NCBI GenBank assembly: GCA_937988885.1
Contig: CALKHR010000034.1
Coordinates: forward strand, 23,310-87,309
Direction of reading: 5' to 3'
Length of the DNA: 64,000 bases
From: an uncultured Roseiflexaceae bacterium
Lineage (GTDB): Bacteria > Chloroflexota > Chloroflexia > Chloroflexales > Roseiflexaceae
The stretch's first letter is position 1, and every line of letters begins with the position of its first letter. Both the position numbers and the translations under genes were made by a program. This document shows, piece by piece, positions 2,172 to 36,800 of this stretch. The notes beneath the pieces were generated by a model, which made no database searches, was not told the origin of the DNA, and saw only the letters and a list, made by a program, of their open reading frames with translations.

Positions 2172-2471
2172 GCGCGCGGTCATTTCTGCGCTATGCCATC
2201 ACGACTCCTCAAATCTCTATGCATCGTCGCACTTCCTCAAATGACAGTAGCGTTTTGACTGTAACGTTCAAAACGTGTCATCGTCGCTATAATCAGTGCT
2301 GAGTACTGGTGGAAGAACTACAGTGTAGTAGCGCATTGTTGTGCGCTGGTATCACCTGTGCAACATCGTGCGGTTTGAAAGAAAGAGAGGACAATTCGTC
2401 TCAAACTTGTTGGGAACGGTTGCCTAGGATGTTGAGTTCAAGTGTGCTGCTAATAGATAAGGAGGTTGTTT

Positions 2472-2999
2472 ATGGCGACTAAGGCAAAGTTGGGGATCAT
2501 TGCATTGATCAGCTATATCCTCACCATTTTTGCTGCCAATGTTGCAATTTCCTTGATAGGTGTTGTTCCTGTAGGTTTTGGCCTCATGGCCCCTGCTGGC
2601 GTTTATTTTGCTGGCCTCGCTTTTTCGCTGCGTGATGCTATTCAGGAGACGCTTGGGCGCCGTTGGGTTGTTGCCGCAATTTTGATCGGTGCGCTGGTTT
2701 CAGCGTTCCTTAGTGCACAACTCGCGCTTGCTAGTGGTATCGCATTTCTTCTAAGTGAGCTAGCTGATTTTGCTGTCTATACCCCACTTCGACAACGCTC
2801 TTGGTTTGCCGCTGTTGCTGTAAGCAACACTGTTGGTGCAGTAGTTGATAGTGCGTTATTCTTATGGTTAGCCTTTGGATCGCTAGAATTTTTGCTCGGC
2901 CAGATCACAGGTAAGCTTTGGATGACGCTCCTTGCAGTGGTGCTCATTACAGTGTGGCGGCGTTGGCAACTCAAATTCACCGCCTTCTCTCATAAGTAG
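2472..2999 (+). CDS. yhhQ: queuosine-precursor (preQ0/preQ1) transporter, VUT/YhhQ family (DUF165) integral membrane protein
   Basis: 175 aa, 5-6 TM helices, YhhQ-like sequence pattern (GLAFSLRDAIQE, FLLSELADFAVYTPLR); RBS AAGGAGG 6 nt before ATG 2472 (track ORF 2466..2999). Confidence 0.55.
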   Translation: MATKAKLGIIALISYILTIFAANVAISLIGVVPVGFGLMAPAGVYFAGLAFSLRDAIQETLGRRWVVAAILIGALVSAFLSAQLALASGIAFLLSELADFAVYTPLRQRSWFAAVAVSNTVGAVVDSALFLWLAFGSLEFLLGQITGKLWMTLLAVVLITVWRRWQLKFTAFSHK

Positions 3000-3044: not shown

Positions 3045-3632
3045 ATGGAAAAGGCAATGAGGATTCTCAACGTATCGGATCGCCAGATAACGTATGATGG
3101 CCGACAACTCGCGCCTCATTGGCTCTATCGTACGTTTAATCTATGCGGGGATGCTGCAGTGACTTTTATCGGGCCATGCAAAGTTGATCTCAGCGAAATG
3201 GTCGATATTGAGGATGTAAAAAATGCAGCGCCAATCTACAGTCCAATGATGCTTCATGTCATTGCTGAATTTTTTGGTAGTGACTTGCATCAAACAGTGT
3301 ATCGTCAGCGATTACTAATCGTGACTGCTAAGGAGTGGTTAGAGACCAAAACTGAGCGATCGGTGATCCGTAAGGGCGATGATCTCTACTTATCCCGTGC
3401 CGATGGAACCTTGGGTAAACTCTCAGTTTCAATCGCCACAGCAAGTATCACCTCAACTCTCATCCACACAGGTTTCAATATTCAGACCGATGGTACACCA
3501 GTGCCAACGGTCGGTCTCGCTGAACTTGGTATCGATCCGACTGAATTTGGCCAGGAATTGCTTCTGCGCTATGCAGAGGAAATTGAGGATATTTGGCTCG
3601 CCCGTTGTAAAGTGCGTGGGGTCAGCGAGTAA
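3045..3632 (+). CDS. hypothetical cytoplasmic protein (195 aa) inside the deazaguanine island
   Basis: Intact ORF, low-GC codon usage like its neighbours; no T-fold CxxxHGH or QueF motifs; family not recognised. Confidence 0.4.
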   Translation: MEKAMRILNVSDRQITYDGRQLAPHWLYRTFNLCGDAAVTFIGPCKVDLSEMVDIEDVKNAAPIYSPMMLHVIAEFFGSDLHQTVYRQRLLIVTAKEWLETKTERSVIRKGDDLYLSRADGTLGKLSVSIATASITSTLIHTGFNIQTDGTPVPTVGLAELGIDPTEFGQELLLRYAEEIEDIWLARCKVRGVSE

Positions 3633-3752: not shown

Positions 3753-4499
3753 ATGCGCTTGCTGATCCTAAATTGTTCTGCTCGCAAGCATGGCAGTGAA
3801 GATCTCATTCCTGCAATCGAGCGTTATGATGGTCCTGTTTGGCAGTTGCTGCGCAGTTATTTGCGCGACCATCAGCCTATAGTGCCACCTTTAGATGTAT
3901 ACGTCCTTTCAGCCGCGTTTGGCCTGATTCCTGCGGACAAGCCCATTCCCTGGTACGATCAAACAATGGATCCAGCACAGGCAGAATTGCTGCGTCCCTC
4001 GGTGTTGGCAACCTTCAAAACATTGATGCAGCGGGGATATGATCAACTCTGTCTTGGTTTGAGCCAACGGTATCTGCAAGCCATGCAAGGTTGGGAAGCT
4101 GTGGTACCTGTAACTGTACAAGTGACACTCACTGATGGCCCAATGGGTATGAAGTTGGGGCAATTACGTGCTTGGCTTAGGGGCTATGAATGGCAGCGGA
4201 ATGTTGAGCAACCACAACGCCTTGAGGCTGCTGAGCAACCGCGTGGTGAAGCTGTGATTGGTGGGGTAGCGCTTCGTCTCTCACAGGAAGAAGTTTTGGC
4301 TCAGGCACGCCTGGCGCTGGCGAATGATACAGTAGGTGCACAACGACGGTATCGTCATTGGTATGTGAGAATCGATGGAGCGCCTGTGGCCCCGAAATGG
4401 TTGGTGAGTCAACTGACCGGTTTGCCAACAAGCGCATTTGATGCGGGTGCTGCTCGTCGAGTATTGTTAGCGCTCGGCTTTGATATTGAGCATGTCTAG
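3753..4499 (+). CDS. DUF328/YaaA-like protein (DpdC-like) with extra about 70-aa C-terminal domain
   Basis: N-terminus LILNCSARK matches YaaA LILISPAKTL; LSAAFGLIPADKPIPWYDQTM matches YaaA [21 protein letters not shown]; 248 aa. Confidence 0.5.
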   Translation: MRLLILNCSARKHGSEDLIPAIERYDGPVWQLLRSYLRDHQPIVPPLDVYVLSAAFGLIPADKPIPWYDQTMDPAQAELLRPSVLATFKTLMQRGYDQLCLGLSQRYLQAMQGWEAVVPVTVQVTLTDGPMGMKLGQLRAWLRGYEWQRNVEQPQRLEAAEQPRGEAVIGGVALRLSQEEVLAQARLALANDTVGAQRRYRHWYVRIDGAPVAPKWLVSQLTGLPTSAFDAGAARRVLLALGFDIEHV

Positions 4500-4608: not shown

Positions 4609-5781
4609 TTAAGCTTTAAGAGTCGCGCTCATTTGGAGTTGTTGATACAGTTGCCACGTATTGTGGAAACCTCGGCGTCGATTGCGGTTGTTACCACGGA
4701 AGATGATAACTTCGATGCCAATCTCACGACAGATACGGCATGGGCATTCTTGCCAAGGTCGGGCTTCAAGCGTTCGACGATAATCACTCTCTAAGCGTTC
4801 GCCTGGTGTTGTCCAAAGCGATGCGTACGCGAGTGCGTGCCGCAACGCTGCTTCTAATGTCGCTTCTCCTCGATCGTATGCACGTAGGATATTGAGGAGA
4901 TTTTGCTCTTGGCGAGAGATCTCGGTCTCATCAGCGTTTAACTTGCGAGCCAGGGTACGAGCTTCGGGGACTCGAATAGCTGTAAAGGTGAGATCACCAA
5001 TAAAGTAATTGCGGCGTCCATCCATCCAAGCGCGTCGGAGACGTGAAGCGCTATCGAAACTTGTCACCCCTAACTTCGCGAATTCTTGAATTTTTTCAGG
5101 GCGATTAACACCAAACAGATGAACTTGGGTGTCTAATCGTAATTCAGGCTGTATTTCCTTAAGGATGCGAAGAATCTCATTTGTTTGACTGCGAACCAAG
5201 CCACCGATCGCAATGTATTGATACCCCATGAGTAGCAGTTCGTGCACTGCTCTGCGATAGGAATCTGGACTCCACCCTTGAGCTACGCCGATAGGAGTAA
5301 AGGTATAACCACCGCTTTTGTGCAATTTGAGGAACTCCTCATTATTGCGCATGGTGATATTCCAGCGGCGCTCCTTTTCATCTTCGTGTTCTGCAAAAAT
5401 AAGATGATCGATCGAGACGCCGAGATCGAAGCCAAGGGTTTGATAGTATTCGAGCATTTCGGCGGTTTGATAAGGAGGCTCTGGTTGATCCCAATAACTA
5501 AACGCTCCGCAATCGCCGAGAACAAGGTGTTGTGCATCCTTAGGCCAACGCAAATAATTGTGTACTGATCCAAGGCTGACGATAGTTGCTTGCTTGCGAG
5601 TGTTATCTTCAATGACAGCACGTGAGAGTAACAGACCATCGTAGGGAGGGTCTGGATAGATCTCATGAGCATAACGATCATCTTGGTAAGGGTTGCGACC
5701 GACAGTATGAGTGTCTGTGAGAAAGTCATACCCGGGATCAACGCGGTCATCCCAGTCGGGAATATAGTATTGTATTGACAT
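4609..5781 (-). CDS. tRNA-guanine transglycosylase-like protein (DpdA-like 7-deazaguanine DNA transglycosylase candidate), 390 aa
   Basis: TGT-fold motifs: GDCGAF (substrate-pocket Asp region), GVAQGW, IAIGGL, zinc motif CPCRIC...H; no queuine-TGT signature. Confidence 0.65.
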   Translation of the reverse strand: MSIQYYIPDWDDRVDPGYDFLTDTHTVGRNPYQDDRYAHEIYPDPPYDGLLLSRAVIEDNTRKQATIVSLGSVHNYLRWPKDAQHLVLGDCGAFSYWDQPEPPYQTAEMLEYYQTLGFDLGVSIDHLIFAEHEDEKERRWNITMRNNEEFLKLHKSGGYTFTPIGVAQGWSPDSYRRAVHELLLMGYQYIAIGGLVRSQTNEILRILKEIQPELRLDTQVHLFGVNRPEKIQEFAKLGVTSFDSASRLRRAWMDGRRNYFIGDLTFTAIRVPEARTLARKLNADETEISRQEQNLLNILRAYDRGEATLEAALRHALAYASLWTTPGERLESDYRRTLEARPWQECPCRICREIGIEVIIFRGNNRNRRRGFHNTWQLYQQLQMSATLKA

Positions 5782-5979: not shown

Positions 5980-6876
5980 ATGGATTACTATGTTTCTTGG
6001 ACACACAGCGATCCTATTTATCAACAATACTTGGAAAATGTGCGGGCACTCGTCAGCCCTCCGAATGTGAATCGTACGTGGCATCCTAGCGATTGGGTTA
6101 CATTACCGAATGCTTTAATTCTCGATAGTGGAGCTTACCAATATCATCGAGAAGGTCGTAGCCCTGATCCCGCAGCGGTACTTGAACGACAACTTCAGAT
6201 GGTTGCCAACCTCACGATACCAGTAGGTATCTGCCATCTTGATGTGCCTTTGCCTGGTACACGCAACCTTGCAGAACTAGAGCGTCGCGTGGAACAGAAT
6301 TTAGTGAACGCACGTTGGCTGATACAAAGGGCTCAACAACTCGACTTGCCCTCGAATATTCGCCTGATCGGTGTAATTCAAGGTGCAACAAGCGAACAAA
6401 TTTATAGCGTCGCTTGTGTTCTCGCAGAACTTGGCTATCAATCGTTTGCTCTTGGATCATTGGCTCGTATGGTGGCATACGCGAAGGATGAACTGCTTCG
6501 GCGGGTTGAGTCAGCGCTTGAGGCTATTGGTTCGGGCCTGCATGTGCTTGGTGTGAGTTCCGCACCACTCCTTCCAGAACTTAGGCGTATTGGTGTCGAA
6601 TCAGCAGACTCAGGAGCTCCCATCCACGAGGCATGGCGCGGGGGAGTATTTTATAGCCATCCCTTCAGGCGCTATAAAATTGAAAGTCCTTATTTCAAAG
6701 AGTGGCAACGAAGTTATAGTTTTGCTGAACTTCTCTCTTCCCCATTGCCATGCGCTTGCCCTGTTTGTCAGCAAGATAGTAGCCAATTACTACAACCTCA
6801 AGGCAAGAAATTCGTTAACCTACGGGCGATTCACAACTATTACCACCTCGTACAGGAACTAGGCTCTTCAACATAG
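5980..6876 (+). CDS. short TGT-like protein (second DpdA-like paralog), 298 aa
   Basis: ALILDSGAYQY (TGT DSGGFQ-like catalytic Asp motif), VIQGATSEQ, zinc motif CACPVC...H; divergent from the 390-aa paralog. Confidence 0.6.
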   Translation: MDYYVSWTHSDPIYQQYLENVRALVSPPNVNRTWHPSDWVTLPNALILDSGAYQYHREGRSPDPAAVLERQLQMVANLTIPVGICHLDVPLPGTRNLAELERRVEQNLVNARWLIQRAQQLDLPSNIRLIGVIQGATSEQIYSVACVLAELGYQSFALGSLARMVAYAKDELLRRVESALEAIGSGLHVLGVSSAPLLPELRRIGVESADSGAPIHEAWRGGVFYSHPFRRYKIESPYFKEWQRSYSFAELLSSPLPCACPVCQQDSSQLLQPQGKKFVNLRAIHNYYHLVQELGSST

Positions 6877-7112: not shown

Positions 7113-8005
7113 ATGGATCGCGATGATTTTATCATCACTGTCTACTGTTTGGTGTGCGAGCAGTATCAGGCTATTTAGAGCCGCTATTCGCTCCGACGCG
7201 GGGATTTGCACCTGCCCTAATCGATGCCGAGGTGATCACACTCGAAATCTGTGGTGAGTACTTCAAGTTGAACACCGATCAAGACATCTTTGACTACTTT
7301 CGTACCCATTATCGGACTTGGTTTCCCGCTTTGACTGAACGCTCGCTGTTTGTTCGTCAAACTGCCAATCTCTGGCAAGTCAAGGCAGCGATACAGCAGC
7401 GTCTTACTCAAATCAGCGGTCAAGCTGCTGATCCGGTGCAAGTGATTGATACGCTGCCTTTACCAGTCTGTGCTCTCACACGCGCACCACGCGAGCGTTG
7501 CTTCACGATGCAGGCCGAGTATGGTTACTGTGTGGCCAAACAGATGCACTACTATAGTTTCAAACTTGGTTTGCGAGTGGCACGCTTGGGAATGATTACA
7601 TCGTTTCCGCTCTTGCCAGCCCGCCCACACGATACCAATATGCTTGACGATCTTGTCGATGGATGTACCGGTTTGACGCCAGCTGATAAAGGTTTTATCG
7701 ACGCGTTCCGTCAAGCCTTACTAGAAGAACGCCACGGTGTTCTGCTTGTAACGCCACCGCGTAAAGGGATGGCAGCCAGCAGCACGCCTGCTCTGCTGAA
7801 AGCCTGCCGATGCATCCGCAAGCGAGTGGAAATAGTTGCCTCGCAACTCACGGAACGATTTGCGATCTCGCGTATTCGGGTCCGTGATCTGTGGCACTTT
7901 CAGCAATGGCTGATACGCAAGGTGCTGGCGCGCACCATTGTGGTGTTTCTCAATCTGCAACTTGGTCGCGCTCCGCTTGATTTGGATAGCCTGGTCTCAG
8001 CTTAA
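7113..8005 (+). pseudogene. IS982-family transposase, disrupted by +1 frameshift near 7150-7175
   Basis: N-terminus MDRDDFIITVYCLVCEQYQAI (frame 0) runs into TAG; rest of the IS982-like DDE transposase continues in frame +1 from about 7153. Confidence 0.7.
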
Positions 8006-8132
8006 TTCTCTAAAAGTGTTGCACATTAGTATTACAACGCAGGGTTCAGGAAACACGGACTGCACTTGACCATAATAAGTGACATGGTATTCTCTCCTCA
8101 CAACGTTTCACACAATAGCAAGGAAGAACACC

Positions 8133-9561
8133 ATGTCCACGACTATTGTAGCACCGACTTGCCCATTGCCTTCCTGCAACCTGACCGAGCAGGATGTCCA
8201 GGAGTTACGTTCACAGCTCGACGCCTTTGTCACTCAATTTAACTCCTGTTTTGCTCGTGCCGACCAGCACGCTTGGGCTCACGCGTATCTCCAGGGTTTG
8301 CTTAGCGATCTTCCACGCAAGTCTATCAAACCTCGCGTTGGCTTTTGGTTTGTCGATACGCTCGCTACGAGCCTTCATCGGAAACAGCCCTTGGGACTAT
8401 GAACCGCTCTTGGCCCAGCAGCAAGCCCTCATGGCTCAAACTCTTGGTGACGAGGATGGCGTCTTGTTGGTCGATGAATCTGGCATGCCCAAACAAGGTC
8501 TGCATTCCGTTGGTGTCGCTCGCCAATACTGTGGCGCGCTTGGCAAGGTTACCTCCTGTCAGATGGGTGTGTTTATCGGCTATGCCACCACCAAGGGCTG
8601 TATCCTGGTGGATGGTCGCTTGTTTGTACCAGAGTGCTGGTTTGATGACGACCATGGTACCTTACGTGCCGAGGTTGGCATGCCTGCCGAGTTGACCTTT
8701 CAAACCAAACCTCAATTGGCTGTGCAATTGCTTGAGGCGATTGTCAAACGCGGTGTCTTGCAGGCGCGCTGAGTGGTAGCTAATGCGCTCTATGGCGATA
8801 GTCCTGCCTTTCGTGATGCAGTCGCAGCGATGGACCTATGGTACTTTACCGAGGTAGCCTGCTCGCAACTGATCTGGCGACGTCATCCGGCAGTGATTGT
8901 TTCTGCCTGGAAGGGTAAAGGACGTAAACCGACGCGTATGCAACTGAAAACACCGAGCAATCAACCATATCGTGTGGATGAACTGCTGTGGCGCTTGCCA
9001 AAGAGAGCTTGGATACGCGGAACCGTCAAGGAGGGCAGTAAAGGACCAATTGTGTGTGACTTCGCGTTTGTGTGTGTGACCGAAGCACGTGCTGGACTGC
9101 CAGGACCGCGACTGTGGCTGGTGATCCGACGAAACGTAAACGATCCCAGAGTGGTGAAGTACTATCTGTGCAATGCGCCAGAAACGATCGATACGGCACG
9201 GCTGGTGCGGATGTGTGGGATGCGCTGGCCGATTGAGCGGACATTTGAGGTCAGCAAAGACGAACTGGGCCTGGATCAGTACGAAACGCGCTCGTGGCTG
9301 GGTTGGCACCATCATATGAGTTTAGTGTTGCTAGCGCACCAATTTTTGGTATGGGTACGGGTACAGTGGCAGGAGCGAGCGCCAACCCTGACGCTGGCAC
9401 AGGTGCGACTATTGTTGACAAGTGTGATCCCGAAGTTGGTGCGGGACGCGACACGGGCGCTGATGATGGTGTGCTACTATCAACGGCGCAACCATGCCGC
9501 CTACCTTTCACATCGCAAACGCAAGTTGGCTTCGCTCGGTGCGCTTGATCCTGCGTTGTAA
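8133..9561 (+). pseudogene. IS701-family (IS4 superfamily) transposase, inactivated by a frameshift (about 8395-8405) and an in-frame TGA replacing conserved Trp (8770-8772)
   Basis: Three track ORFs (8079-8402, 8194-8772, 8773-9561) together form one IS701-type transposase (YGDSPAFRDAV, RWPIERTFEVSKDELGLDQYETRSWLGWHHHM); VLQAR-TGA-VVANALYGDS where intact copies have W. Confidence 0.7.
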
Positions 9562-9894
9562 TATTAGGTTATCGTTTTATATTGTTACTCGCACCAATCT
9601 AGGTACTTATGTCCGAGAGTGTTTAGGCCGTGTTATTGGGCGATGGTGGGTTTGATGGTACTGAATTGCAAGAGCATCTGCGAAACTCAATTGGTCATAT
9701 GTTTGAGGTAGTTATAATCACACCAACTCAGATGATGTGATGACGAAAGCCTACGGTTCAATCACACCGCAGGCCTTCTGAGAACACACTTCAAGGAACC
9801 AATCTGAGAAATCTAGATGCTATTGTAAAGTTGTACAAGAAGCAAGCATATAGTGTTATCGTTTTGTTGCAATCATAAAACGTGGTGATATACA

Positions 9895-11094
9895 CTATGG
9901 GGCGTATGGTGTTCCCTGCATTCCTGATTTATCACAAAAGTTTTTGAAATCGCAAACAGTACAGTTTTCTGGTTTTGGAATGGCTTCCCAAGACTGTGAA
10001 ATAGATGCACCTGCTTTCTCTTTGCTGATCGATAACTCAATATTTGAAACAACATTATCAAATTCTTGTAGACTTTGGCTGATCGTATGCTTTGTAATTG
10101 GTACTATGTGGATAGCACGTTGCAGACGATAGGCATCTGAAAGTTGTGGCAATGTATCTCTACGTCTCTTCGGATTCCAGGATGCCAAAACCTCTGCATC
10201 CTTCCCATTTGGCAGAATATCTGTTTTGGGTGCTCCATTGCCATGAATCTCTTCCCATAGATGTGTCAGATCCGTTTGGCTTGGCTCTAATTCATTCACA
10301 AATATGAGCATGCCAGCTAATACCTGATGGGAGTTTGCTTGTTGTTCACGTAGCCAAGCATAGGTTTGCAATTGCCATTCGTATTTTTGCAATGTATTAT
10401 CGGCAGGATCGTTGCTGGGGCGTCGCATGCCTTTATAGTCCACAATTATCTCAAACTGAGGTCGTGATAGATGTGACTGTTGCTTATGTGCCTCAGAGAT
10501 CATTTGCTGAATTTCTGAGTGGTTGAGGAGTGCTTGTAAAAGGATGTTGCTTGGATCGACTGCAGCCAATTGCAGAGATGTTAAAACATCTACTACCCCT
10601 GAGACTTCATAGTAATTGGAACGGGGCGTCGTCCCTTGTAGGTCTGGCATAGTTCGAATGCCTCGGAGACGCACTTCTGCTTGATCGATTAACAGAAATA
10701 AATATCTACCAATCTGGTTAATTAGCTTACGTGCGCGCACTTGAGCTATCTTAAGCATGGCTTGATTTCGATAGCGTAAACCCTGTGCAGCTAAGCGATT
10801 AATGATAGTGTTTTCAATATCTTCAAGCGTAGGAATATCCCAAGGGAAGGTCAATAATGGTCCAATGCCCTCGCCCGCCATCATAGCCTCTCGTTGATCG
10901 TGCCAACGTCGGTATGCTTCCTCCATAACACCGTGAATAAATTGGCCGAACCATAGTTGTACAGGTTTGGAGGGTGGTAGTGCACCACGATTATGATATC
11001 GATATTGGCGACCACAACTCATAAAGGATAAGAGATCGCCTGTTAAGCTATAGGAAGGAATAATATATGGTTCAGGCCGAGTTGACAGGCTCAC
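9895..11094 (-). CDS. Cas4/AddB-like PD-(D/E)XK nuclease with four-Cys Fe-S cluster motif
   Basis: N-terminal Cys (FMSCGRQYRY), RecB motif EIIVDYKG, C-terminal CTVCDFKNFC; 21 bp downstream of the UvrD-like gene (operon). Confidence 0.6.
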   Translation of the reverse strand: MSLSTRPEPYIIPSYSLTGDLLSFMSCGRQYRYHNRGALPPSKPVQLWFGQFIHGVMEEAYRRWHDQREAMMAGEGIGPLLTFPWDIPTLEDIENTIINRLAAQGLRYRNQAMLKIAQVRARKLINQIGRYLFLLIDQAEVRLRGIRTMPDLQGTTPRSNYYEVSGVVDVLTSLQLAAVDPSNILLQALLNHSEIQQMISEAHKQQSHLSRPQFEIIVDYKGMRRPSNDPADNTLQKYEWQLQTYAWLREQQANSHQVLAGMLIFVNELEPSQTDLTHLWEEIHGNGAPKTDILPNGKDAEVLASWNPKRRRDTLPQLSDAYRLQRAIHIVPITKHTISQSLQEFDNVVSNIELSISKEKAGASISQSWEAIPKPENCTVCDFKNFCDKSGMQGTPYAP

Positions 11095-11115
11095 AATATC
11101 ACCTCGTACTTTACT

Positions 11116-13455
11116 TTAAATATATACAATATTAGGTACGATTGGCCAACGTAGACCATTCGGAGAAGGATCTCTCCGATTCCAACCCAGTGCAATATTA
11201 GGGATTTTTGAATTGGGTTGATGCGTTTTTGGATCACGCAATCCTACCAATAAAAGGACATCTTGTGGACGGCTGAAAGCTACGAAATATAAGCGAAGTA
11301 AATCATCAAAGGCTCGGTCAAGTGCTGAACGTTTCGGTGTCAAGAGTGGAGAATGAGGACGAAGCGCATCCTCCAAGGCTTGCGGGCGACCATGTTGAGT
11401 GGGGAAGCGCTTAAAATGTTGTTTCCAATGGTTCCTTTTAAAATCGCTACCCACATCGACGATCACTAGAGGAAACTCTAAGCCTTTTGCTTGATGGATA
11501 GAAAGAATATTGAGACGATCCCGCGGAGTGGTTTCTAAAAGATCCTCATCGATTTCAATGTGGCCAGCAGCGAGAGGAGCTAAAATATCGTTGATTGCAG
11601 CCTCAACCGAAGCCTCATCAAATGAAGTTCCTGTGAAGATTTCTGCATTGTATCGACTGAAATGCGCAGATTGAGCCATAATGCGCGTAATAGCTTCCAA
11701 ATACACTAATCCTTCAGCATCCTCTTGCATTTCAGGTATCCATACGATTAAGTTGTAGAGTAACTCTATCAACCTAACAGACTGTGGCCAACCAGAACCA
11801 TGTTGTGGTTTCCGATCTTTCCAAGCTTGTACAAACTCCCCTAATGAATGCCGACGTATTCCTGGTGCTGGTGGGTTTGTTGCAATATATTCATTCGCCT
11901 TAGAACGCCAATCATTGAGGGTGTTGTATACATCGTTGGGTAATTTCCTGATGAGTCTGTTGGTCTGGACATCACCTTTGGGATCAATGCACTCTAGGAT
12001 TAAACCACAAATGCGTGCAACACTTTCAATTTCACTAAATTCCTGTCCCCGTGGATTAAAGACTCGGATCGATGGCAATAGGGCTTGTCGTAATAGCAAT
12101 GGCAAGCGTGGTTTTTTGCTACTGCTATATTCTTGTGGTGAACTTGATAGGAGAGCAATATCACCAACAGAGCCAGCCGAGGGGTTAATTGGAATATGAA
12201 CGTTACCGTGTTGTGTTGCGATAGTTCTTCCCTTATCAACAACGTCTTGAATAAAGGTTACGAGATCTGTAGCGAGACACTGAAGATCATCGCGAAACAT
12301 TGCTAAGATAGGGTATTCAACCGATGGTGTTGCTCGTCCTGCGATTAAAGGTGGCTTTCCTGCTACACGTGCCGCACTATAGTCAGGATCGTGTTGAAGG
12401 TACTTCATCGTATATTCAACAATTGAAGGGGTTGATCGATAGTTAGTATTTAAATAAATTGTTTGAGAAAGGATCCCTGTAGCGTCTTCGAGTCGATGTA
12501 CAAAATCACGGAACAAATCAACTGTTGCTCCGCGAAAACGATAGAGTGATTGATCATCATCTCCAACTACAGTTATCGATCCTTTATTTGCATGAGCAGC
12601 ACGAGCTAGAGTGAAATAGATTGACTCTTGAAGTAGATTGGTATCTTGATATTCATCTACTAAAACTACTTGAAGCGTATCTGTAAAACGTTTTAATGAA
12701 CCATCTTTTAGTCGTTGATAAAAACTTTGTTCTAATGATGCAAAATCGAGCACCTGTATGCTATCAAGATATTGTTCATAGGCGTCAATTACCTCAAAAA
12801 GTGCATTCACTTCAGTAGGTTGAGAGGCTCGAAATTGTTCTCTATCAACTTGATCATGAATGAAGCGTTGGCGGATCTCGCTAGCAAGTGAGGCAATATG
12901 ATGCGTAAGAATAGAATCTTCGCAGCATAAATTTTTGAGGTACAATTTTAGCGCTAGATTATTCCAAGCATTAGTTTCAAGGACTCCCTTACGGAACATA
13001 AACGTTCGACCAATAAACTCATCGATCATTACTGGAGGCTGCATTCCTGCTGAACGAAAATCAAGAAGCACCTGTTGTGCAATACTGTCAAGAGTTCCTA
13101 TGAATATTTGATTGAGATCGAGGCGTTCTAACCACTGTTGCTGTTCCTGATTTGCTTTAGATTTTAGGGTATCACGTAAATTATCTCCCCATCCAAGGAT
13201 GCGCGAGCGCAACTCAGCAGCAGCTCGCTTGGTAAAGGTTGTTGCAAGGATAGTGCTCGGAGGCACCTTATCCACAAATATAAGTTTTAATACTCGGAGT
13301 GCCAGTACAGTAGTTTTGCCACTACCTGGACCTGCCACTAGAAAGAGCGAATGCCCTTTATCCGCTGTTACAGCCTGATGTTGTTGTTTATTTGTAGTAA
13401 GATGTTTATCTAGTGCGACAGCAGTAGCATCTAAAAAATCTGGTAACTGAAACAT
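11116..13455 (-). CDS. UvrD/Rep/PcrA-family SF1 DNA helicase
   Basis: Motifs I GPGSGKTT, Ia TTFTKRAAAEL, II VLVDEYQDTN, III VGDDDQSLYRFRGA, IV NYRST, VI IHQAKGLEFPLV. Confidence 0.85.
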   Translation of the reverse strand: MFQLPDFLDATAVALDKHLTTNKQQHQAVTADKGHSLFLVAGPGSGKTTVLALRVLKLIFVDKVPPSTILATTFTKRAAAELRSRILGWGDNLRDTLKSKANQEQQQWLERLDLNQIFIGTLDSIAQQVLLDFRSAGMQPPVMIDEFIGRTFMFRKGVLETNAWNNLALKLYLKNLCCEDSILTHHIASLASEIRQRFIHDQVDREQFRASQPTEVNALFEVIDAYEQYLDSIQVLDFASLEQSFYQRLKDGSLKRFTDTLQVVLVDEYQDTNLLQESIYFTLARAAHANKGSITVVGDDDQSLYRFRGATVDLFRDFVHRLEDATGILSQTIYLNTNYRSTPSIVEYTMKYLQHDPDYSAARVAGKPPLIAGRATPSVEYPILAMFRDDLQCLATDLVTFIQDVVDKGRTIATQHGNVHIPINPSAGSVGDIALLSSSPQEYSSSKKPRLPLLLRQALLPSIRVFNPRGQEFSEIESVARICGLILECIDPKGDVQTNRLIRKLPNDVYNTLNDWRSKANEYIATNPPAPGIRRHSLGEFVQAWKDRKPQHGSGWPQSVRLIELLYNLIVWIPEMQEDAEGLVYLEAITRIMAQSAHFSRYNAEIFTGTSFDEASVEAAINDILAPLAAGHIEIDEDLLETTPRDRLNILSIHQAKGLEFPLVIVDVGSDFKRNHWKQHFKRFPTQHGRPQALEDALRPHSPLLTPKRSALDRAFDDLLRLYFVAFSRPQDVLLLVGLRDPKTHQPNSKIPNIALGWNRRDPSPNGLRWPIVPNIVYI

Positions 13456-13858
13456 AATTACGGAACAGTCCTTTGCTATTTATAAGGTTCCTATGTTATG
13501 CAGCTTTACTATAGTGGGGATTGATAAAACATTACCTATCGAGTGATGCTAATTATTTACTAGAAAGCAAAAATTACAATTGAGTAAGGAGTCTCATTGG
13601 GAAACCGTTTGTAAAGGAGGAGTAAGAGACTCTACAAACTAGAGTTTACATTGGTTGCTCTATGGGCAGGCGTGCAAATACGTTGTAGAGTGAGAGTGGG
13701 TTGTAGCTGTGTTCGAAGAGTGTATTGAGTTTGCCCTTGCACCATATACGTCCCATTGAACTTCCCATATAACGACGAACTCTTTTTATTCTACCAACAC
13801 GTAAGCACCAGAACAGCACCACGGAGCACAACTCCTTCCTAACAGTTCCACATTGCTA

Positions 13859-14980
13859 TTACCCCCGTGGCGTGCGGTACGGGCCAAGGTATCGCTGGAC
13901 CAAGGCGAGGTCGAACTGATTTTGTAAGGTGGTGCGGGCGCCTTCGGCGGTGGCGTCGAGCGCGCGCCCGATCTGCTTGCAGATCGCGTCGGCCAGGAAC
14001 TGCGGCAGTGGCTCCTGCACGCCATTGACCTGCAACGCGCTGCGGAAGGTCGCGAGCACCGCCCCCAACGGCTCGCGGGCGATCAGCGCGGCGGGCAGTT
14101 CGAGCCGATACGCTGGCCCTGTCTCGTCGGGGCGGTAGTAGATCACGTAGAGTTGGCCGTAGCCATGCTCGATCGCCATACGGCGCTCATTGAAATCGCG
14201 CAGATTGTTTGAGCGGTAGCCCGTCAGCAAGTGCGGGCGATCCTGCTTGATCAGCGGTACGGGCAACGAATGTTCACCCGCCTCCAGCACCGTGCTCCAC
14301 AGCGTGCGATCGGTGACGGTGCCCGAGAGGTGCGGCGCCAGTGCTGCCACATCGTCGGCGGCGGTGGCCTGCTTGGGGTGCGCAACCACACGCCGACACT
14401 CCAACACCAATCGCCAGTCCTGCTCATCGAAGAACTGTTCGAGCACCCTGCGGAACGGCGCCCACCAGCCCGGCATCTGCTCGCTGCGCGAGTCCTGCGC
14501 AAAGCGCATCAGCAGGCGGTTGACCTCGAGCAGCGCCGAGTAGAACGAACCATCCAAAACGAACAGACCTGTGCTGGTGGCGCGAATGCGCTTCGCCAAC
14601 AGCCGCAACTCCAGGATCGTGCGTAGACCGCCTAGAATGCTCTCCAACTCCTCGACGGGCGGCATCAGTTGCACCAGTACCGATTGATCGGTTAGGCTCG
14701 CCTCCTCGACGGCGACCGCCGCAACCGCCGCGAACGTTGCGCCAGCGGCGGGCACGGTGGCATGTGCGCCGTCAACCGCGCACAATCGCCGCACCGGGCC
14801 GTTGGGAGCCTTGCGAATCCGGCGCGCCAAAGCCTCGCGCAGACGGTCGCGGTCGCCTTCGAGTTGGAGCAACGTCTCGCGACAGGCATCGGCGCAGGCG
14901 TTGATCGCCGCGAGCACCGCCGCCGGCAACGCCGCAGGATCAAGCTCGTTGGGAGTTCCTGTCAAAGTGTGTGTGGTCAT
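13859..14980 (-). CDS. hypothetical protein, possible NurA-like nuclease domain
   Basis: 373 aa GC-rich ORF; VLDGSFYSALLE resembles the NurA (I/V)DGS catalytic motif; no HerA partner adjacent. Confidence 0.3.
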   Translation of the reverse strand: MTTHTLTGTPNELDPAALPAAVLAAINACADACRETLLQLEGDRDRLREALARRIRKAPNGPVRRLCAVDGAHATVPAAGATFAAVAAVAVEEASLTDQSVLVQLMPPVEELESILGGLRTILELRLLAKRIRATSTGLFVLDGSFYSALLEVNRLLMRFAQDSRSEQMPGWWAPFRRVLEQFFDEQDWRLVLECRRVVAHPKQATAADDVAALAPHLSGTVTDRTLWSTVLEAGEHSLPVPLIKQDRPHLLTGYRSNNLRDFNERRMAIEHGYGQLYVIYYRPDETGPAYRLELPAALIAREPLGAVLATFRSALQVNGVQEPLPQFLADAICKQIGRALDATAEGARTTLQNQFDLALVQRYLGPYRTPRG

Positions 14981-16299: not shown

Positions 16300-16681
16300 T
16301 CCACACGCAGCGCAGTTTGCTGGGCGCTGGATCGGCGAGACGCAGGGCTACGAGATGCCCGCGCATATTTGGGATATTCGCGTGGTCGGCGATACGCTGT
16401 ATATCGAATCGCGCTGGGAGAACGATACCGCACTGGGGCGGATGTCCGGCAGAATGCACGCCGAGCAGGCGAGCTTCACGATAGGCCGTCATACCGCCGT
16501 GCTCGTCGATCCCCAGCACTTTATCATTCCTGGCTGGGATACCAACGATACGCGCGGCGGTATTGGCCCCGATTATGATGTGGTCTTTTCGCGCCCCGGC
16601 CTGCCCGAACTACAAGCCAGCCAAGTGTGGGAACGCTTTCGGGCCGCGCAGTCGGAGGGCACGCCCGAAGCGCAAGACTAG
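16295..16681 (+). CDS. hypothetical protein (about 128 aa)
   Basis: ORF overlapping stop of upstream gene by 4 nt (ATGCCTAA); no family recognised. Confidence 0.35.
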   Translation, partial: PNPHAAQFAGRWIGETQGYEMPAHIWDIRVVGDTLYIESRWENDTALGRMSGRMHAEQASFTIGRHTAVLVDPQHFIIPGWDTNDTRGGIGPDYDVVFSRPGLPELQASQVWERFRAAQSEGTPEAQD

Positions 16682-17841
16682 CTGTGCTTCAGCAGAGGCA
16701 CCACCTGCCCAAACGGGAAGCGCTGCGCTTGCAGGCCGCCCGGCGTCACCACCCACAGCACCGGCAAACGCGGCGCTTGCTTGGGAAAATGCCCGAACCC
16801 ATCGGTCATGTAAATCGCCACCGATGGCTCCCACGGCGGGCGGTGCTTGGGGATCTGCTCGAAGAACGGGCGAAAGTCGGTGCCGCCGCCGCCCATTGGC
16901 TGCGGCAACTCGCCACGGGCATTGAGCTTATGCGGGCCGTACAGCTTGGTATCGGCGAAGTAGAGCAGGCAGCGCAGATGCGGGTAACTGCGCATAATCG
17001 CCTGTACCTCGCTCAAAAAGAGTTGCACGCTGGCCTGATCGATCGAGCCGCTGGTATCCACGCCCAACAATACCGTTAGGCTTGTGCTGCTGATCGTCTC
17101 CAGGTACATGCCCCGGCCCACGAAGCGTCGGTCGTAATCCTCGAAGTCGGTGGGCGTTTTGACCAGGAACCGCCACAGCAGGCTGCGCCAATCGAGTTTG
17201 CAGGGCGAGAGCGCCCCCAGTTCGCGCGCGAACTCACCCGCTCCATGGCCGATCTGCTGCTGTTCGGCGTACTCTCGGGCCTGCTCCTGCGCGTGCTGCC
17301 AGTGCCGCTCAAGCTCCTGCTTCCGCGCCTCGGCATCGCCTGTCTGCTCGCCTGATGCGTTCTCGGCATCGGCGGGCGGCCCCTCCAACAGATCATCGGG
17401 TTGGTTCTTCCCCTGCTTCTGCTGATCCTGCTGCTTCTGAATCAGGATGTCGTAGACTTCCTCGGTGCTCAGATGCTCCAACTGTGGGTTGCGCAGCCCG
17501 CCTTCCGGCAATTCATACCGCTCCTTGAGCAGCATGCCGTTGATCACAATATCGGCGGCGACGTTCCACAGCTTCGGGTCGCGCCCGCCGCGCCGTGGCA
17601 AGTGCAGCAGCGCCGCGTGCAGCACCTCGTGCGCCAAGAGTCCATCGAGTTGCGCGGGTGTCTGTTTCACCACGAACTCTGGATTGACATAAATCGTCCG
17701 TCCGTCGGTGGCGGCGGTTGGGATGTGATGGCTGATCTCAAACTGGGCGAATAGCGCCAACGAACTGAAGAACGCGCTGCGCTGTTGCATGCGTTGAAGT
17801 GAGGCGCTGATCGCTTTGGCGGTGGCGGGATCGAGTTTCAT
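16678..17841 (-). CDS. VWA-domain protein with N-terminal putative zincin-like metallopeptidase domain (DUF2201-like, HEVLH motif), MoxR partner
   Basis: HEVLHAALLH motif, C-terminal VWA (LGVDTSGS ... MTDG); 4-nt overlap with upstream AAA ATPase gene. Confidence 0.65.
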   Translation of the reverse strand: MKLDPATAKAISASLQRMQQRSAFFSSLALFAQFEISHHIPTAATDGRTIYVNPEFVVKQTPAQLDGLLAHEVLHAALLHLPRRGGRDPKLWNVAADIVINGMLLKERYELPEGGLRNPQLEHLSTEEVYDILIQKQQDQQKQGKNQPDDLLEGPPADAENASGEQTGDAEARKQELERHWQHAQEQAREYAEQQQIGHGAGEFARELGALSPCKLDWRSLLWRFLVKTPTDFEDYDRRFVGRGMYLETISSTSLTVLLGVDTSGSIDQASVQLFLSEVQAIMRSYPHLRCLLYFADTKLYGPHKLNARGELPQPMGGGGTDFRPFFEQIPKHRPPWEPSVAIYMTDGFGHFPKQAPRLPVLWVVTPGGLQAQRFPFGQVVPLLKHS

Positions 17842-33579: not shown

Positions 33580-33813
33580 TATCCCTCCCCGATTGCTAGT
33601 GAATAAATTGTTATTCTGAGCCTGTATTTTCGCATTGACAAGCATTTCGATCGCTGCTAGGATAGGGCTACCCCGCAATCAACATCCCGCTCTCGTCTTC
33701 GCCCAAAGGTACCTACAACCCTTATCTTGGTTTCTTGGCTGTCCCGCATTTTGGCGGTGCTACAGCGCGTTGGCGTTTTCCCTTATCTGCTGTTGTCGCG
33801 AAAAGGAGTTGGT

Positions 33814-36800
33814 ATGCTTGGTACGCTTCCCTCCACACATAGTATGGCAGTGCGAGGATTAGGCCTGCTACGATTGTGGCTGGCGATCGTGATGATCCTG
33901 CTGAGTGTCGCTGTTGTGGCGTCGCCAGTATGGGCTGCAGGGACGATCAGTCTCACCAATTTGAATGTGGCGGTGTCCGAAGACTTCGATACGCTCGCCA
34001 GCTCTGGCACGTCGAGCACGGTGCCGAACGGCTGGGAGTTCTTGGAATCTGGCACGTCTGCCTCTGTAAATGGCTTGTACACCGCCGGTACTGGTTCAAG
34101 CAATACTGGCGATACGTACAGCTTCGGTGCAACTGGTAGCTCGGATCGGGCGCTCGGCGCGCTGCGCAGTGGCACAATCAATACGATCATCGGTGCACAT
34201 TTCACCAATGATACGGGCTCCACCATCACGCAGTTGACGATAAGTTACACGGGCGAGTTGTGGCGATTAGGAACTACTGGCCGTGATGATCGGATCGACT
34301 TCCAGTATAGCTTGACGGCCACTGGCCTCAACACTGGCGCGTTTGTCGATGTCAACGAGCTTGATGTGGTGACGCCCGATTCCAGTGGCACGGCTGGCGC
34401 ACGCGATGGTAACGACCCGCAGTTCCGCACAACTGTGAGCCACACTATCACTGGCCTGACGATCGATCCCGGCGCGTCGTTCTGGATTCGCTGGGTCGAT
34501 TTCGATGCGAGCGGTGCCGATGACGGATTGGCGATCGATGATTTCAGCCTGATTCCCGGTGGCGCTTCTTCCTCCACCAACCCGACAGGTTCGGCGACCG
34601 TTACGCCTGCGAGTGTGGATGCGGGCGATACCACGCTGATCACGGTCGATGTGACGCCCGGCACGAATCCGGCCAGCACCAACCTCAGCGTGGTGGCGAA
34701 TCTGGCGGCGATCGGCGGCTCGATCAACCAAACACTGTACGATGATGGTACGCATGGCGATGTGACGAGCGGCGACCTGACCTTCTCGTTTGAGGCCACG
34801 GTGGATGCCGCCACTACGGCGGGTATCTACGATCTGCCGATCACAATCAGCGATGATGAGGGGCGCAGCAGCAACACCAGCGTTGCCTTGACGGTGACCG
34901 CTCCGGCTGGCGATGCCAAGGTGGTGATCAGCCAGGTGTACGGCGGCGGCGGCAACGCGGATGCAACGCTGAAGAACGACTTTATCGAGTTGTACAACGC
35001 TGGCACCGCGAGCCAGAGTTTGGCTGGTTGGTCGGTGCAATACGCTAGTGCGGCGGGCACAAGTTGGCAGGTCACGACACTGTCGGGAGTGATTGCGCCC
35101 GGGCAGTATTACCTGATCCAACAGGCAGCTGGTAATGGCGGAACGCTCGATCTGCCGCCTCCGCACGCGATCGGTACGATTCCGATGAGTGCCACGAGCG
35201 GTAAGGTGGCCTTGGTATCGAGTGCCTCTCCGCTAAGCGGCGCATGCCCTATCGGCAATCCATTGGTCGTTGATTTCGTGGGCTACGGCTCGGCGAACTG
35301 CTTTGAGGGCAGCGGCCCCACCGATTTGCTCAGCAACACCACGGCGGCGCTGCGCTTGGGCGATGGTGCCACCGATACCGACGATAACGCCAACGACTTC
35401 GAGGTCGGCGCACCCTACCCGCTGCACGTCGATTATGCGCCGAGTGTGCTGAGCACTACTCCGGCCAGCAACGCAACCGACGTCGCTCCGGCTAGCTCGA
35501 TCGAGATCACTTTCAGTGAGCCGGTCGTCGTGACGGGTTCGTGGTTCTCGATCGTGTGTGCCAACAGCGGCAGCCACACGGCTACCGTGAGCGGCGGTCC
35601 GACCGTCTACACGCTCAATCCCGATGTCGATTTCGATGCCGACGAGCAGTGTACGGTCACGCTGGTGGCGTCGCAGATCAGCGATGTGGACAGCGACGAC
35701 CCGCCGGATACGATGGCCGCCAATTACGTCTGGAGCTTCACCACTGGCTCTGTTGCGGTCTGTGGCTCGACCTTCACGCCGATCTACGCGGTTCAGGGTA
35801 GCGGCATGAGCGCTGCGATCACTGGCATTGTGACGGTGGAAGGTGTGGTCATCGGTGACTTCGAGGGCAGTGGTGGCCTCGGCGGCTTCTACTTGCAAGA
35901 CCCGGAGGGCGATAACGACCCGACGACCTCTGATGGTATCTTCGTCTACACAGGCGGCACCGATACGGTTAGCGTTGGCCAGCACGTGCGCGTGACAGGC
36001 TACGCTCGTGAGCGTTTCAACCTGACCTCGCTCAACGGCGCGAACGACAACAACGCTGCGGTGCCAGCCGCCAACATCACGATCTGTGGTGAGGGCGCGG
36101 AGATCACTCCGGTTGAAGTGACGATGCCGTTCCCATCGAGCACCTACCTCGAGCGCTTCGAGGGCATGCTGGTGACGCTGCCGCAGGCGCTGACGATCGC
36201 CGAATACTTCGACTATGAGCGTTACGGCGAGATCGTGTTGTCGTACCCCGACGATATTGCAGCACTGACTGGGCCGAAGCGCTTCTACACGCCGACCGCG
36301 ATTGTTGCGCCGGGTGCGCCCGCTGCAGCGCTCGCCGCAGAGTACGAGCTGCGCAAAATCACGCTCGACGACGGTTTGGGCGTGCAGAACCCCAACACGT
36401 TGCGCCACCCCAACGGCCAGCCGTTCGGCATCAACAACTCCTTCCGTGGCGGCGATAAGGTGCAGGGTGTGACGGGCGTGCTGAGCTACGATTTCAGCCT
36501 CTACCGCATCCAGCCGACTGCTCCGGCCACCTACACTGCTGTGAACCCACGGCCAGCGGCTCCAGAGGATGTCGGCGGTCGCTTGAAGGTGGGTGCGTTC
36601 AACACGCTGAACTACTTCCTGACGTTGGATGCTCTCGACGACTCCACGAACAATGATGATCCCGCCGATAACGTGTGTGGAGGCAACGCCAATCTCGATT
36701 GTCGTGGCGCGGATCTGAGCCAGCCCAACGAGTTCCCACGACAACGGGCCAAATTGCTTCAAGCGATCATCGGCCTGGACGCCGATGTGCTGGGCCTGAA

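Follow-up and report, generated by a model that had tools for sequence, protein, structure and literature searches.

The helicase-nuclease pair and its island

The window analysed here is a stretch of 64,000 nucleotides from an uncultured Roseiflexaceae bacterium (Chloroflexota; GenBank assembly GCA_937988885.1, contig CALKHR010000034.1, positions 23,310 to 87,309 of the forward strand). It contains two adjacent minus-strand genes, coding for a UvrD-type helicase of superfamily 1A (SF1A) and an iron-sulfur (Fe-S) nuclease, in a low-GC island that also carries DpdA and other genes of DNA modification by 7-deazaguanine. An initial annotation had proposed this pair as a restriction or effector module of the neighbouring modification genes, or else as an independent two-gene defence system. 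The genes are:

11116-13455, minus strand: UvrD-type SF1A helicase, 779 amino acids (aa), ATG start
9895-11094, minus strand: Fe-S PD-(D/E)XK (RecB/AddB/Cas4-type) nuclease, 399 aa, GTG start

Both open reading frames (ORFs) were confirmed, with the 21-bp gap between them that had been annotated, and the nuclease gene has a ribosome-binding sequence, GAGGTG, ahead of its GTG start. The helicase has the Pfam domains UvrD-helicase (5.7e-48), AAA_19 and UvrD_C, and the UvrD motifs GPGSGKT, DEYQD, GDDDQSLYRFRGA, NYRS, HQAKGLEF and YFVAFSR are readable in it; as had been claimed, the motif set is full and the Pfam scan detects no nuclease domain. Its scores are far under the NCBIfam equivalog cutoffs of PcrA, UvrD, AddA, Rep and RecB (133 bits for AddA TIGR02785, with a cutoff of 708, and 93 bits for RecB, with a cutoff of 696), and it is therefore a separate subfamily. 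The top solved relatives in a PDB sequence search are UvrD (3lfu, 8.9e-27), PcrA, AddA and AdnB.

The nuclease matches Pfam PDDEXK_1 (2.6e-12). Across 26 aligned homologues the residues C27, C378/C381/C387, D169, E215, D219-Y220-K221 and Q241...Y245 are invariant; they include the DYK motif and, in C27 plus the three C-terminal cysteines, the 1+3 Cys pattern first noticed in the single sequence, and they correspond by sequence to the Fe-S RecB/AddB/Cas4 signature. Neither the nuclease sequence nor its profile found anything meaningful among the sequences of solved structures, so that structure prediction and a fold search were needed. The AlphaFold2 model (predicted local distance difference test score, pLDDT, of 84.8) was closest in Foldseek to AddA/AddB nuclease domains (4cei_A, 4cej_B and 3u4q_B, probability 1.00), with further matches to the Argonaute-associated Cas4-family ACE1, Dna2, RecE and RecB. 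In the window copy both ORFs and all the catalytic residues are intact, and the two proteins would act as the motor and the nuclease subunit of the pair.

The other features of the island and its borders are:

2466-2999, plus strand: YhhQ/Vut_1 queuosine-precursor (preQ0/preQ1) transporter (Pfam Vut_1 1e-09; TIGR00697 5.3e-09, below cutoff)
3045-3632, plus strand: DUF366 protein, between the YhhQ and DpdC-like genes (Pfam DUF366 5.5e-61)
3753-4499, plus strand: DUF6884 (DpdC-family, YaaA-like) protein with CxxxK and LSAxxG motifs
4609-5781, minus strand: DpdA, DNA 7-deazaguanine transglycosylase (NCBIfam NF041059, 1.5e-139, 465 bits with a cutoff of 200)
5980-6876, plus strand: TGT-like paralogue "TGT2", 298 aa (Pfam TGT 3.4e-11; PADLOC DpdA 1.9e-14)
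7154-8005, plus strand: transposase of a second insertion sequence (IS), DDE_Tnp_1_3 (Pfam 9.3e-14)
8027-9566, plus strand: IS element with DDE_5 transposase (Pfam DDE_5 1.1e-33 and 3.7e-07), between the nuclease and TGT genes
13456-13858, strand not applicable: AT-rich intergenic stretch of 403 bp at the right border of the low-GC island, presumed at first to be a promoter region
13859-14980, strand not given: NurA-domain gene, solitary, with host GC, directly beside the island

The DNA-modification module announced by the initial annotation is therefore present, with DpdA, TGT2, DUF6884, DUF366 and YhhQ, the last of these forming the left end of the island. The window DpdA is also recognised by PADLOC (3.8e-130) and is 59% identical to the DpdA of Roseiflexus and 42% to that of Methanoperedens. 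TGT2 has diverged from DpdA and is kept in the Chloroflexota relatives (60% identity with its Roseiflexus counterpart); its translation contains a C-x-C-x2-C...H motif, with the Zn-motif cysteines present, and it may be a partner subunit or provide a second specificity. Short TGT-like paralogues of this kind (~300 aa), encoded divergently from DpdA, were seen in the Chloroflexota versions (counterparts at 16537-17451 of locus L001 and 8485-9396 of L087) and in the metagenome loci L122, L126 and L134. The DUF6884 protein reaches 28.8 bits with Pfam (1.6e-06), slightly under the cutoff of 30 bits, and in PADLOC it has a weak match to DpdC (9e-05) and one to the candidate model PDC-M57A. It is far shorter and more divergent than canonical DpdC, although it belongs to DUF6884, the family to which DpdC has been assigned (10.1101/2025.02.24.639861) and which is YaaA-like (PMC11701544). 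Its motifs are C8xxxK12 and LSAAFG, and it is 33% identical over 144 aa to the first gene of the archaeal four-gene operon described below. No DUF366 homologue was found in ~170 related loci.

Several components of known Dpd systems were looked for. DpdB models of PADLOC and NCBIfam matched none of the island ORFs scanned, and phmmer with four DpdB queries gave no match at E<=1e-4 among all ORFs of at least 70 aa across the 64-kb window. None of dpdD-K appears among the five PADLOC matches of the nuclease or among the 25 listed of the 50 matches of the helicase; PADLOC returns generic GajB/UvrD models for the helicase and weak Cas4 for the nuclease, in agreement with the earlier statement that the pair is not homologous to the dpdD-K restriction genes.

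Two IS elements, overlooked at first, separate the pair from the modification genes. The DDE_5 element is complete, with inverted repeats of 17 nt at its two ends (8027-8043 and 9550-9566) and a transposase that an in-frame stop splits into ORFs 8194-8772 and 8773-9561. At least 24 contigs, which come from many sequencing runs, share this IS-bearing layout, and their helicase and nuclease proteins are identical. The closest relatives of the window copy, L087 (72% identity) and Roseiflexus (62%), carry extra genes between the nuclease and TGT2/DpdA. One encodes an ATPase of ~950 aa whose N-terminal part matches DpdH (~1e-12), and the other one or two encode small proteins of no assigned family. 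The IS elements stand where the relatives carry these genes, and tblastn detected in the window no remnant of the relatives' r370, r254/r268 or DpdH-like genes. The IS insertions were probably accompanied by a deletion, and the Dpd-type system of the window may be only partly functional.

The low-GC island spans ~2.4 to 13.86 kb of the window. The low GC that had been noted holds for the nuclease gene (0.438), the helicase gene (0.421) and the 403-bp stretch upstream of the latter (0.404), compared with 0.657 in the adjacent NurA gene and 0.573 in the whole window. The supposed promoter region is not supported by the sequence: a sigma-70 consensus scan of it gave 9 sites against 9.5 expected from shuffled sequence, and the promoter and terminator scan was no better than with shuffled sequence, so this is merely an AT-rich intergenic stretch. 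The window has no tRNA genes that could mark an island border, and a repeat search for att-type borders turned up nothing beyond the inverted repeats of the IS and short matches at chance level. NurA, with no HerA gene adjacent to it, belongs to the conserved core of Roseiflexaceae/Chloroflexales (74-87% identity in many metagenome-assembled genomes, MAGs, and 84-87% in close Roseiflexaceae). Roseiflexaceae relatives keep it with other neighbours, different in the two relatives compared, and without the helicase-nuclease pair, which is therefore accessory in the host lineage. NurA was rejected as a member of the system on these grounds and on its host GC; it also has no similarity to the 370-aa gene that comes after the Roseiflexus nuclease.

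Conservation of the pair and its linkage with DpdA

The nuclease family is small and clearly bounded; it has 1689 members at 90% clustering, and matches at E<=1e-30 amount to 163 clusters among 1.84 billion representatives. The best 150 of 501 family representatives are all of 501 aa or less, with no helicase fusions among them, and no homologue was found in 50,697 phage records. We retrieved the loci of the best 80 of 270 species genomes and the best 80 of 356 metagenome contigs, plus several individual contigs, giving 151 unique loci (80 from Methanobacteriales, 70 from elsewhere and the window). In 137 of the 151 a helicase homologue lies directly upstream of the nuclease in the same orientation, as it does in the window, and most of the exceptions are contig ends. 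The distance matrices of the two proteins are correlated (r=0.83). The helicase and the nuclease are thus a fixed two-gene unit. In a neighbour-joining tree of the nuclease, the Methanobacteriales form a clade (80 loci) apart from all the others (70 loci and the window). The window proteins are 58-73% identical to their nearest members, and these closest relatives are all located in Dpd- or Druantia-type islands. Some DpdA-linked loci have two helicase-nuclease pairs, in tandem in L157 (4422-12934) and convergent in L036 (1-7519), an arrangement that recalls two-motor enzymes such as AdnAB.

Outside Methanobacteriales the distribution is patchy and covers at least 10 phyla, Chloroflexota, Bacillota, Bacteroidota, Planctomycetota, Desulfobacterota, Cyanobacteriota and Pseudomonadota among them, and archaeal MAGs assigned to Methanoperedens, Methanotrichaceae, Altiarchaeota, Theionarchaea and Nitrosotalea. 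DpdA was scored in the available flanking sequence, and 53 of the 70 non-Methanobacteriales loci had informative flanks. It was present in 47 of the 70 (38 of the 53), that is, a linkage of 67-72%, versus none of the 80 inside Methanobacteriales, where the flanks covered were 10 kb. The linked TGTs are true DpdA orthologues (PADLOC, 1e-123 to 1e-130). DpdA is the gene directly downstream of the nuclease in 24 loci, and a short DUF6884 gene is directly upstream of the helicase in 14, which gives the typical operon order DpdC-like (DUF6884), helicase, nuclease, DpdA. This four-gene operon, with overlapping or abutting ORFs, is found in Methanoperedens and Methanotrichaceae, and its order recurs in many metagenome loci. 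In L005, for example, the genes are DUF6884 (7269-7649), helicase (7646-9982), nuclease (10001-11191) and DpdA (11195-12547), 4-bp overlaps being typical. The co-occurrence with TGT-like genes that the initial annotation had proposed as a check was thus observed, and such a conserved gene order across both domains strongly supports a functional tie between the pair and the 7-deazaguanine genes. The nuclease and DpdA distance matrices are moderately correlated (r=0.51, Mantel p ~0.001), indicating frequent co-transfer with some shuffling of modules.

The short DUF6884 protein of the four-gene operon at L003 (7177-7641) matches the PADLOC candidate model PDC-M57A (9e-13), and this candidate system may overlap with the operon through its first gene only. 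Identity of the pair itself with PDC-M57 was rejected, as only the DUF6884 gene matches and no PDC-M57 model is among the listed matches of the helicase and the nuclease.

Three homologues are plasmid-borne and all of them are Dpd-linked. In Rhizobium sp. WYJ-E13 (L176) one strand carries helicase-nuclease-(307 aa)-DpdB-DpdA-DpdB-QueE-QueC-YhhQ, where DpdA scores 562 bits and the two DpdB copies 444 and 385 bits with the NCBIfam equivalog models. In Bradyrhizobium pB41S5 the order is queD-queE-dpdB-dpdA-dpdB-(DpdC-like), divergent from helicase-nuclease. The dpdD-K genes are absent from both stretches, and in the two rhizobial replicons the pair takes the place of the canonical restriction operon, in line with the proposed analogy with dpdD-K. 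DpdB was detected in just 7 related loci, including L175 and L176, and most DpdA-linked loci have no detectable DpdB. Simple replacement of DpdB by the helicase was considered and rejected as the sole explanation: since two DpdB copies accompany the pair in the rhizobial replicons (L175 and L176), it is not a mere DpdB substitute.

Copies without DpdA

The Methanobacteriales copies have a different setting, and no TGT or DpdA was found within the 10-kb flanks of the 80 loci. In Methanobrevibacter the order MrfA-like DEAD/MZB helicase, pair and DUF169 is kept across species, with the MrfA-like gene as divergent neighbour of the pair (L057, 7527-19654) and Rad50 and Mre11 ~4.5 kb downstream. In the Methanobacterium-type loci the genes are abutting on one strand:

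L025, 2434-9901: Mre11-Rad50-helicase-nuclease operon, Methanobacterium-type (also in L019, L028, L033, L133, L137, L139, L144 and L148)

In this order the pair behaves as a vertically inherited, syntenic core component in a double-strand-break repair setting. The initial annotation had held that orthologues commonly found in core-genome repair contexts without modification genes would speak against a defence role; such orthologues do exist in one clade, Methanobacteriales (80 loci), and they qualify a "defence-only" reading. Because this core pair often adjoins Mre11-Rad50 and has no DpdA within 10 kb, its context points to an intrinsically end-processing helicase-nuclease that would work without any modification. 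It is a candidate functional replacement for HerA-NurA in end resection. The two have the same place in the operon with Mre11-Rad50 and the same logic of a motor plus a nuclease for DNA ends, but their folds are not related, HerA belonging to the hexameric FtsK/HerA ATPases and NurA to the RNase H-like nucleases, so that this is only an analogy. No published account of the pair with Mre11-Rad50 in Methanobacteriales was found, although an earlier mention in Constantinesco 2004 or Thiaville 2016 is possible.

Other DpdA-less copies are found in defence neighbourhoods. In L016 the pair comes directly after type III-like Mod/Res, in L110 it is near an HSDR_N+N6_Mtase/Eco57I-type enzyme (type IIG/I-like restriction-modification, R-M), in L119 near a DUF499 ATPase, and in L017 after a NERD-UvrD protein and a DEAD helicase. 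In L086 (3451-14647) and L088 (7567-21129), whose nucleases are 70% and 58% identical to that of the window, it is directly upstream of DruC/DruD/DruE-like genes. At these two loci the pair is followed by a ~550-aa protein homologous to the 370-aa gene after the Roseiflexus nuclease, and the L086 helicase is split into two ORFs. Since the copies without DpdA adjoin such varied defence systems, the pair behaves as a module attachable to different systems of self/non-self discrimination.

A candidate restriction arm and its alternatives

The system most closely comparable is canonical Dpd (dpdA-K, known from Salmonella Montevideo and others). A bona fide DpdA, a DUF6884/DpdC-family protein (short and divergent in the window) and a preQ0 transporter are common to both, related loci carry queC/D/E and some of them DpdB, a DpdH-like ATPase is encoded in the nearest relatives, and the island is likewise horizontally acquired. 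The window differs in having no dpdD-K and, as candidate restriction arm, a UvrD-type SF1 helicase plus an Fe-S RecB/Cas4-type nuclease that are not homologous to DpdD-K. Most pair-linked versions, including the window, are also without detectable DpdB, the four-gene operon is their commonest form, and they occur in archaea as well as in bacteria.

With AddAB, AdnAB and RecBCD the pair shares a UvrD/PcrA-like SF1A motor, a RecB-family nuclease with the AddB-type 1+3 Cys Fe-S site and, in one of its clades, a link to a double-strand-break repair operon (Mre11-Rad50). The window nuclease has the AddB-type Fe-S RecB fold, but the motor and the nuclease of the pair, one of each, are small proteins of their own (779 and 399 aa) and do not form large fusion subunits like those of AddAB or RecBCD. 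It has no inactivated-helicase Chi-reader domain and is not an AddA/RecB equivalog by NCBIfam score.

The same combination of an SF1 UvrD-like helicase and a pfam12705 Cas4-like nuclease was described by Hudaiberdiev et al. 2017 (PMC5704561) as UvrD-Cas4 fusions with type III R-M and Dcm/Vsr and as an unfused pair in Clostridiales, together with Cas4-like proteins linked to COG1205 helicases in mesophilic archaea. The theme of an ancillary helicase-nuclease on modification-based defence is also the same, and two of our contexts recall theirs, as L016 follows type III Mod/Res and the Methanobrevibacter copies abut a COG1205/MZB helicase. The window pair differs in being unfused (two ORFs, 21 bp apart) and in having DpdA/DpdC-like genes as dominant partners. 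A text search of that paper gave no occurrence of "transglycosylase", "Mre11" or "Rad50".

Two other known systems were rejected. GajB models of Gabija are the best PADLOC matches of the helicase (3.6e-38, partial) and the layout of two genes, nuclease and UvrD-like, is similar. However, the partial matches go back to the UvrD core common to both, the partner is a PD-(D/E)XK Fe-S nuclease and not GajA (an OLD-family ATPase-TOPRIM), and PADLOC gave no GajA match in the gene adjoining the helicase. CRISPR Cas4 and ACE1, the latter among the top structural matches, have in common with the window nuclease a RecB-like core with four Fe-S cysteines, but at 399 aa this protein is about twice their size, with large helical insertions. 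It scores 19.8 bits with TIGR00372 (cutoff 65) and its PADLOC Cas4 matches are weak. No cas or Argonaute genes are adjacent (the neighbours are the helicase, the IS elements, the TGT genes and NurA); the window was not scanned for CRISPR arrays.

We consider it about an even bet (probability near 0.5) that the pair is the restriction arm of an undescribed, compact Dpd-type self-marking system lacking dpdD-K. In AddAB, AdnAB and RecBCD a 3'-5' SF1A motor and an Fe-S RecB-type nuclease work together. The two proteins of the pair would form a comparable two-subunit, AddAB-like complex in which the SF1A motor, presumably of the same polarity, would unwind DNA from an end or nick and feed a single strand to the Fe-S RecB/Cas4-type nuclease for degradation, a mechanism of end processing that fits the Mre11-Rad50 context. 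YhhQ would import the precursor, and DpdA, with the TGT-like paralogue and the DpdC-like protein, would write the preQ0-derived 7-deazaguanine into the cell's own DNA. DNA without the mark would be unwound and degraded, and on self DNA the machine would be restrained by the mark or by its writer or reader proteins, as Chi limits AddAB and RecBCD. Since the pair is tolerated without DpdA in Methanobacteriales, the discrimination would have to come from partners, from control of the entry site or from stalling at modified bases. Entry could be controlled, for example, by breaks at unmodified DpdA target sites or by breaks made by DpdH-like or other partners; in the last option the machine would stall at modified bases and the mark would have a Chi-like role. 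A restriction role is favoured by the DpdH-like ATPase of the nearest relatives, DpdH being a member of the canonical restriction operon. The pair also has the habits of a defence-island gene: a patchy spread over phyla and onto plasmids, accessory status in the host lineage, low GC and other defence systems beside the DpdA-less copies. The prediction of UvrD-Cas4 fusions as ancillary parts of type III R-M and Dcm/Vsr (PMC5704561) is a precedent.

Several observations weigh against this interpretation. The pair has no recognisable 7-deazaguanine reader domain. In Methanobacteriales it is evidently not toxic without DpdA, so alone it cannot attack all unmodified DNA. In the four-gene operons, which have no detectable DpdB, the helicase might supply the ATPase function for base insertion. 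In addition, 15 of the 53 informative non-Methanobacteriales loci have no DpdA in the available sequence, and in some DpdA-linked loci the neighbourhood includes genes of repair type (dinB and Ku in pB41S5, for instance). Finally, in the window itself the system is interrupted by the two IS elements and is without the DpdH-like and r254 genes of its nearest relatives.

A more far-reaching version, which we put forward only tentatively and regard as rather doubtful, would make the DpdC-like/helicase/nuclease/DpdA operon a minimal 7-deazaguanine R-M system of bacteria and archaea, in which the modified base checks the machine as a chemical Chi written by DpdA and unmarked DNA is degraded processively, the same machine having been domesticated in Methanobacteriales as the missing resection partner of Mre11-Rad50 in place of HerA-NurA. 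One helicase-nuclease module would then connect a core repair pathway of archaea with a mobile immune system. Full-text searches found no published link of DpdA to a UvrD-type helicase or a Cas4-like nuclease, an earlier mention in Thiaville 2016 or Constantinesco 2004 being possible. A 2025 survey of dpd islands, anchored on dpdAB, reports islands "lacking the restriction operon" and names no alternative (10.1101/2025.02.24.639861).

One alternative is that the pair assists the modification and restricts no foreign DNA. It would open or resect DNA for the guanine exchange by DpdA, replacing DpdB, or clear abasic sites, nicks or stalled DpdA-DNA adducts. This would agree with the four-gene operons, where the only other genes are modification genes that flank the pair with overlapping ORFs, and with the lack of detectable DpdB in most DpdA-linked loci and in the whole window. 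The clear repair context with Mre11-Rad50 in Methanobacteriales, and dinB and Ku near the pair in pB41S5, point the same way, as does the presence of the DUF6884 member YfjM among the interactors of abasic and RNA-base lesions (PMC11701544). We consider such a helper role unlikely all the same. Two copies of DpdB accompany the pair in Rhizobium and Bradyrhizobium, and the active site and Fe-S cysteines of the nuclease are invariant. The DpdA-less copies adjoin other defence systems, not modification pathways in need of help, and the nearest relatives have a DpdH-like gene of restriction-operon type. Phage DpdAs, as far as is known, carry out the modification with no helicase and no DpdB.

The independent defence system offered by the initial annotation as an alternative survives in part. 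The pair would be a self-sufficient two-gene or back-up degrader, acting on phage or plasmid ends or on replication intermediates regardless of 7-deazaguanine, and a mere fellow traveller of Dpd. The DpdA-less copies beside type III R-M, type IIG/I-like R-M, DUF499, NERD-UvrD and Druantia-like genes favour it, and so do the pair standing alone in Methanobacteriales, the only moderate nuclease-DpdA correlation and the similar "ancillary" view of the UvrD-Cas4 fusions (PMC5704561). The window adds a pair that is separated by IS elements from the modification genes, yet has kept its ORFs intact in at least 24 contigs. But most of the non-Methanobacteriales loci are DpdA-linked, at a frequency that random co-location does not explain, and the pair holds a fixed place between dpdC-like and dpdA, with 4-bp overlaps, in distant phyla of both domains. 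It matches no validated stand-alone system model, and we hold this alternative to be improbable as well.

Housekeeping repair, with the pair as an AddAB/AdnAB-like end-resection enzyme for double-strand breaks in a coincidental Dpd neighbourhood, is very unlikely for the window in spite of the Mre11-Rad50-helicase-nuclease operons and conserved synteny of Methanobacteriales, the AddAB-like nuclease fold and the repair nuclease gene NurA next door, given that Roseiflexaceae with NurA at 84-87% identity have no adjoining pair, that the GC of the pair is 0.42-0.44 versus 0.66 in NurA, that NurA is a core gene unrelated to the island, and that the closest relatives are all in Dpd- or Druantia-type islands.

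If the pair is indeed the restriction arm of a compact Dpd-type system, four genes (one motor, one nuclease, a transglycosylase and a DpdC-like protein) would make a far more tractable model than canonical Dpd, whose restriction is poorly understood and whose eight-gene restriction operon is hard to dissect. Such a system could reveal how a 7-deazaguanine mark is recognised and how DNA degradation follows from it. Dpd-type immunity would then reach into the archaea (MAGs assigned to Methanoperedens, Methanotrichaceae, Altiarchaeota and Theionarchaea), and some of the dpdAB(C) islands reported without a restriction operon would be accounted for. Because the window copy is interrupted by IS elements and depleted of genes, the best experimental models are elsewhere. 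The Methanobacteriales clade, for its part, offers a candidate for the end-resection enzyme, located in the loci examined beside Mre11-Rad50 where thermophilic archaea encode HerA-NurA, and the two clades together would be a tangible example of machinery passing between repair and defence.

Some further genes of the window are worth recording. At 16678-18896, and unrelated to the pair, the ORF of a MoxR-type AAA ATPase overlaps that of a DUF2201 metallopeptidase/VWA-like protein downstream of it, next to an arginine-deiminase-like gene. At 20080-23928 there are two large ORFs (695 and 572 aa) without Pfam match, in a region of lower GC (0.49-0.55), and further on, at 33727-39048, a 1773-aa protein with RTX, cadherin and Ig repeats.

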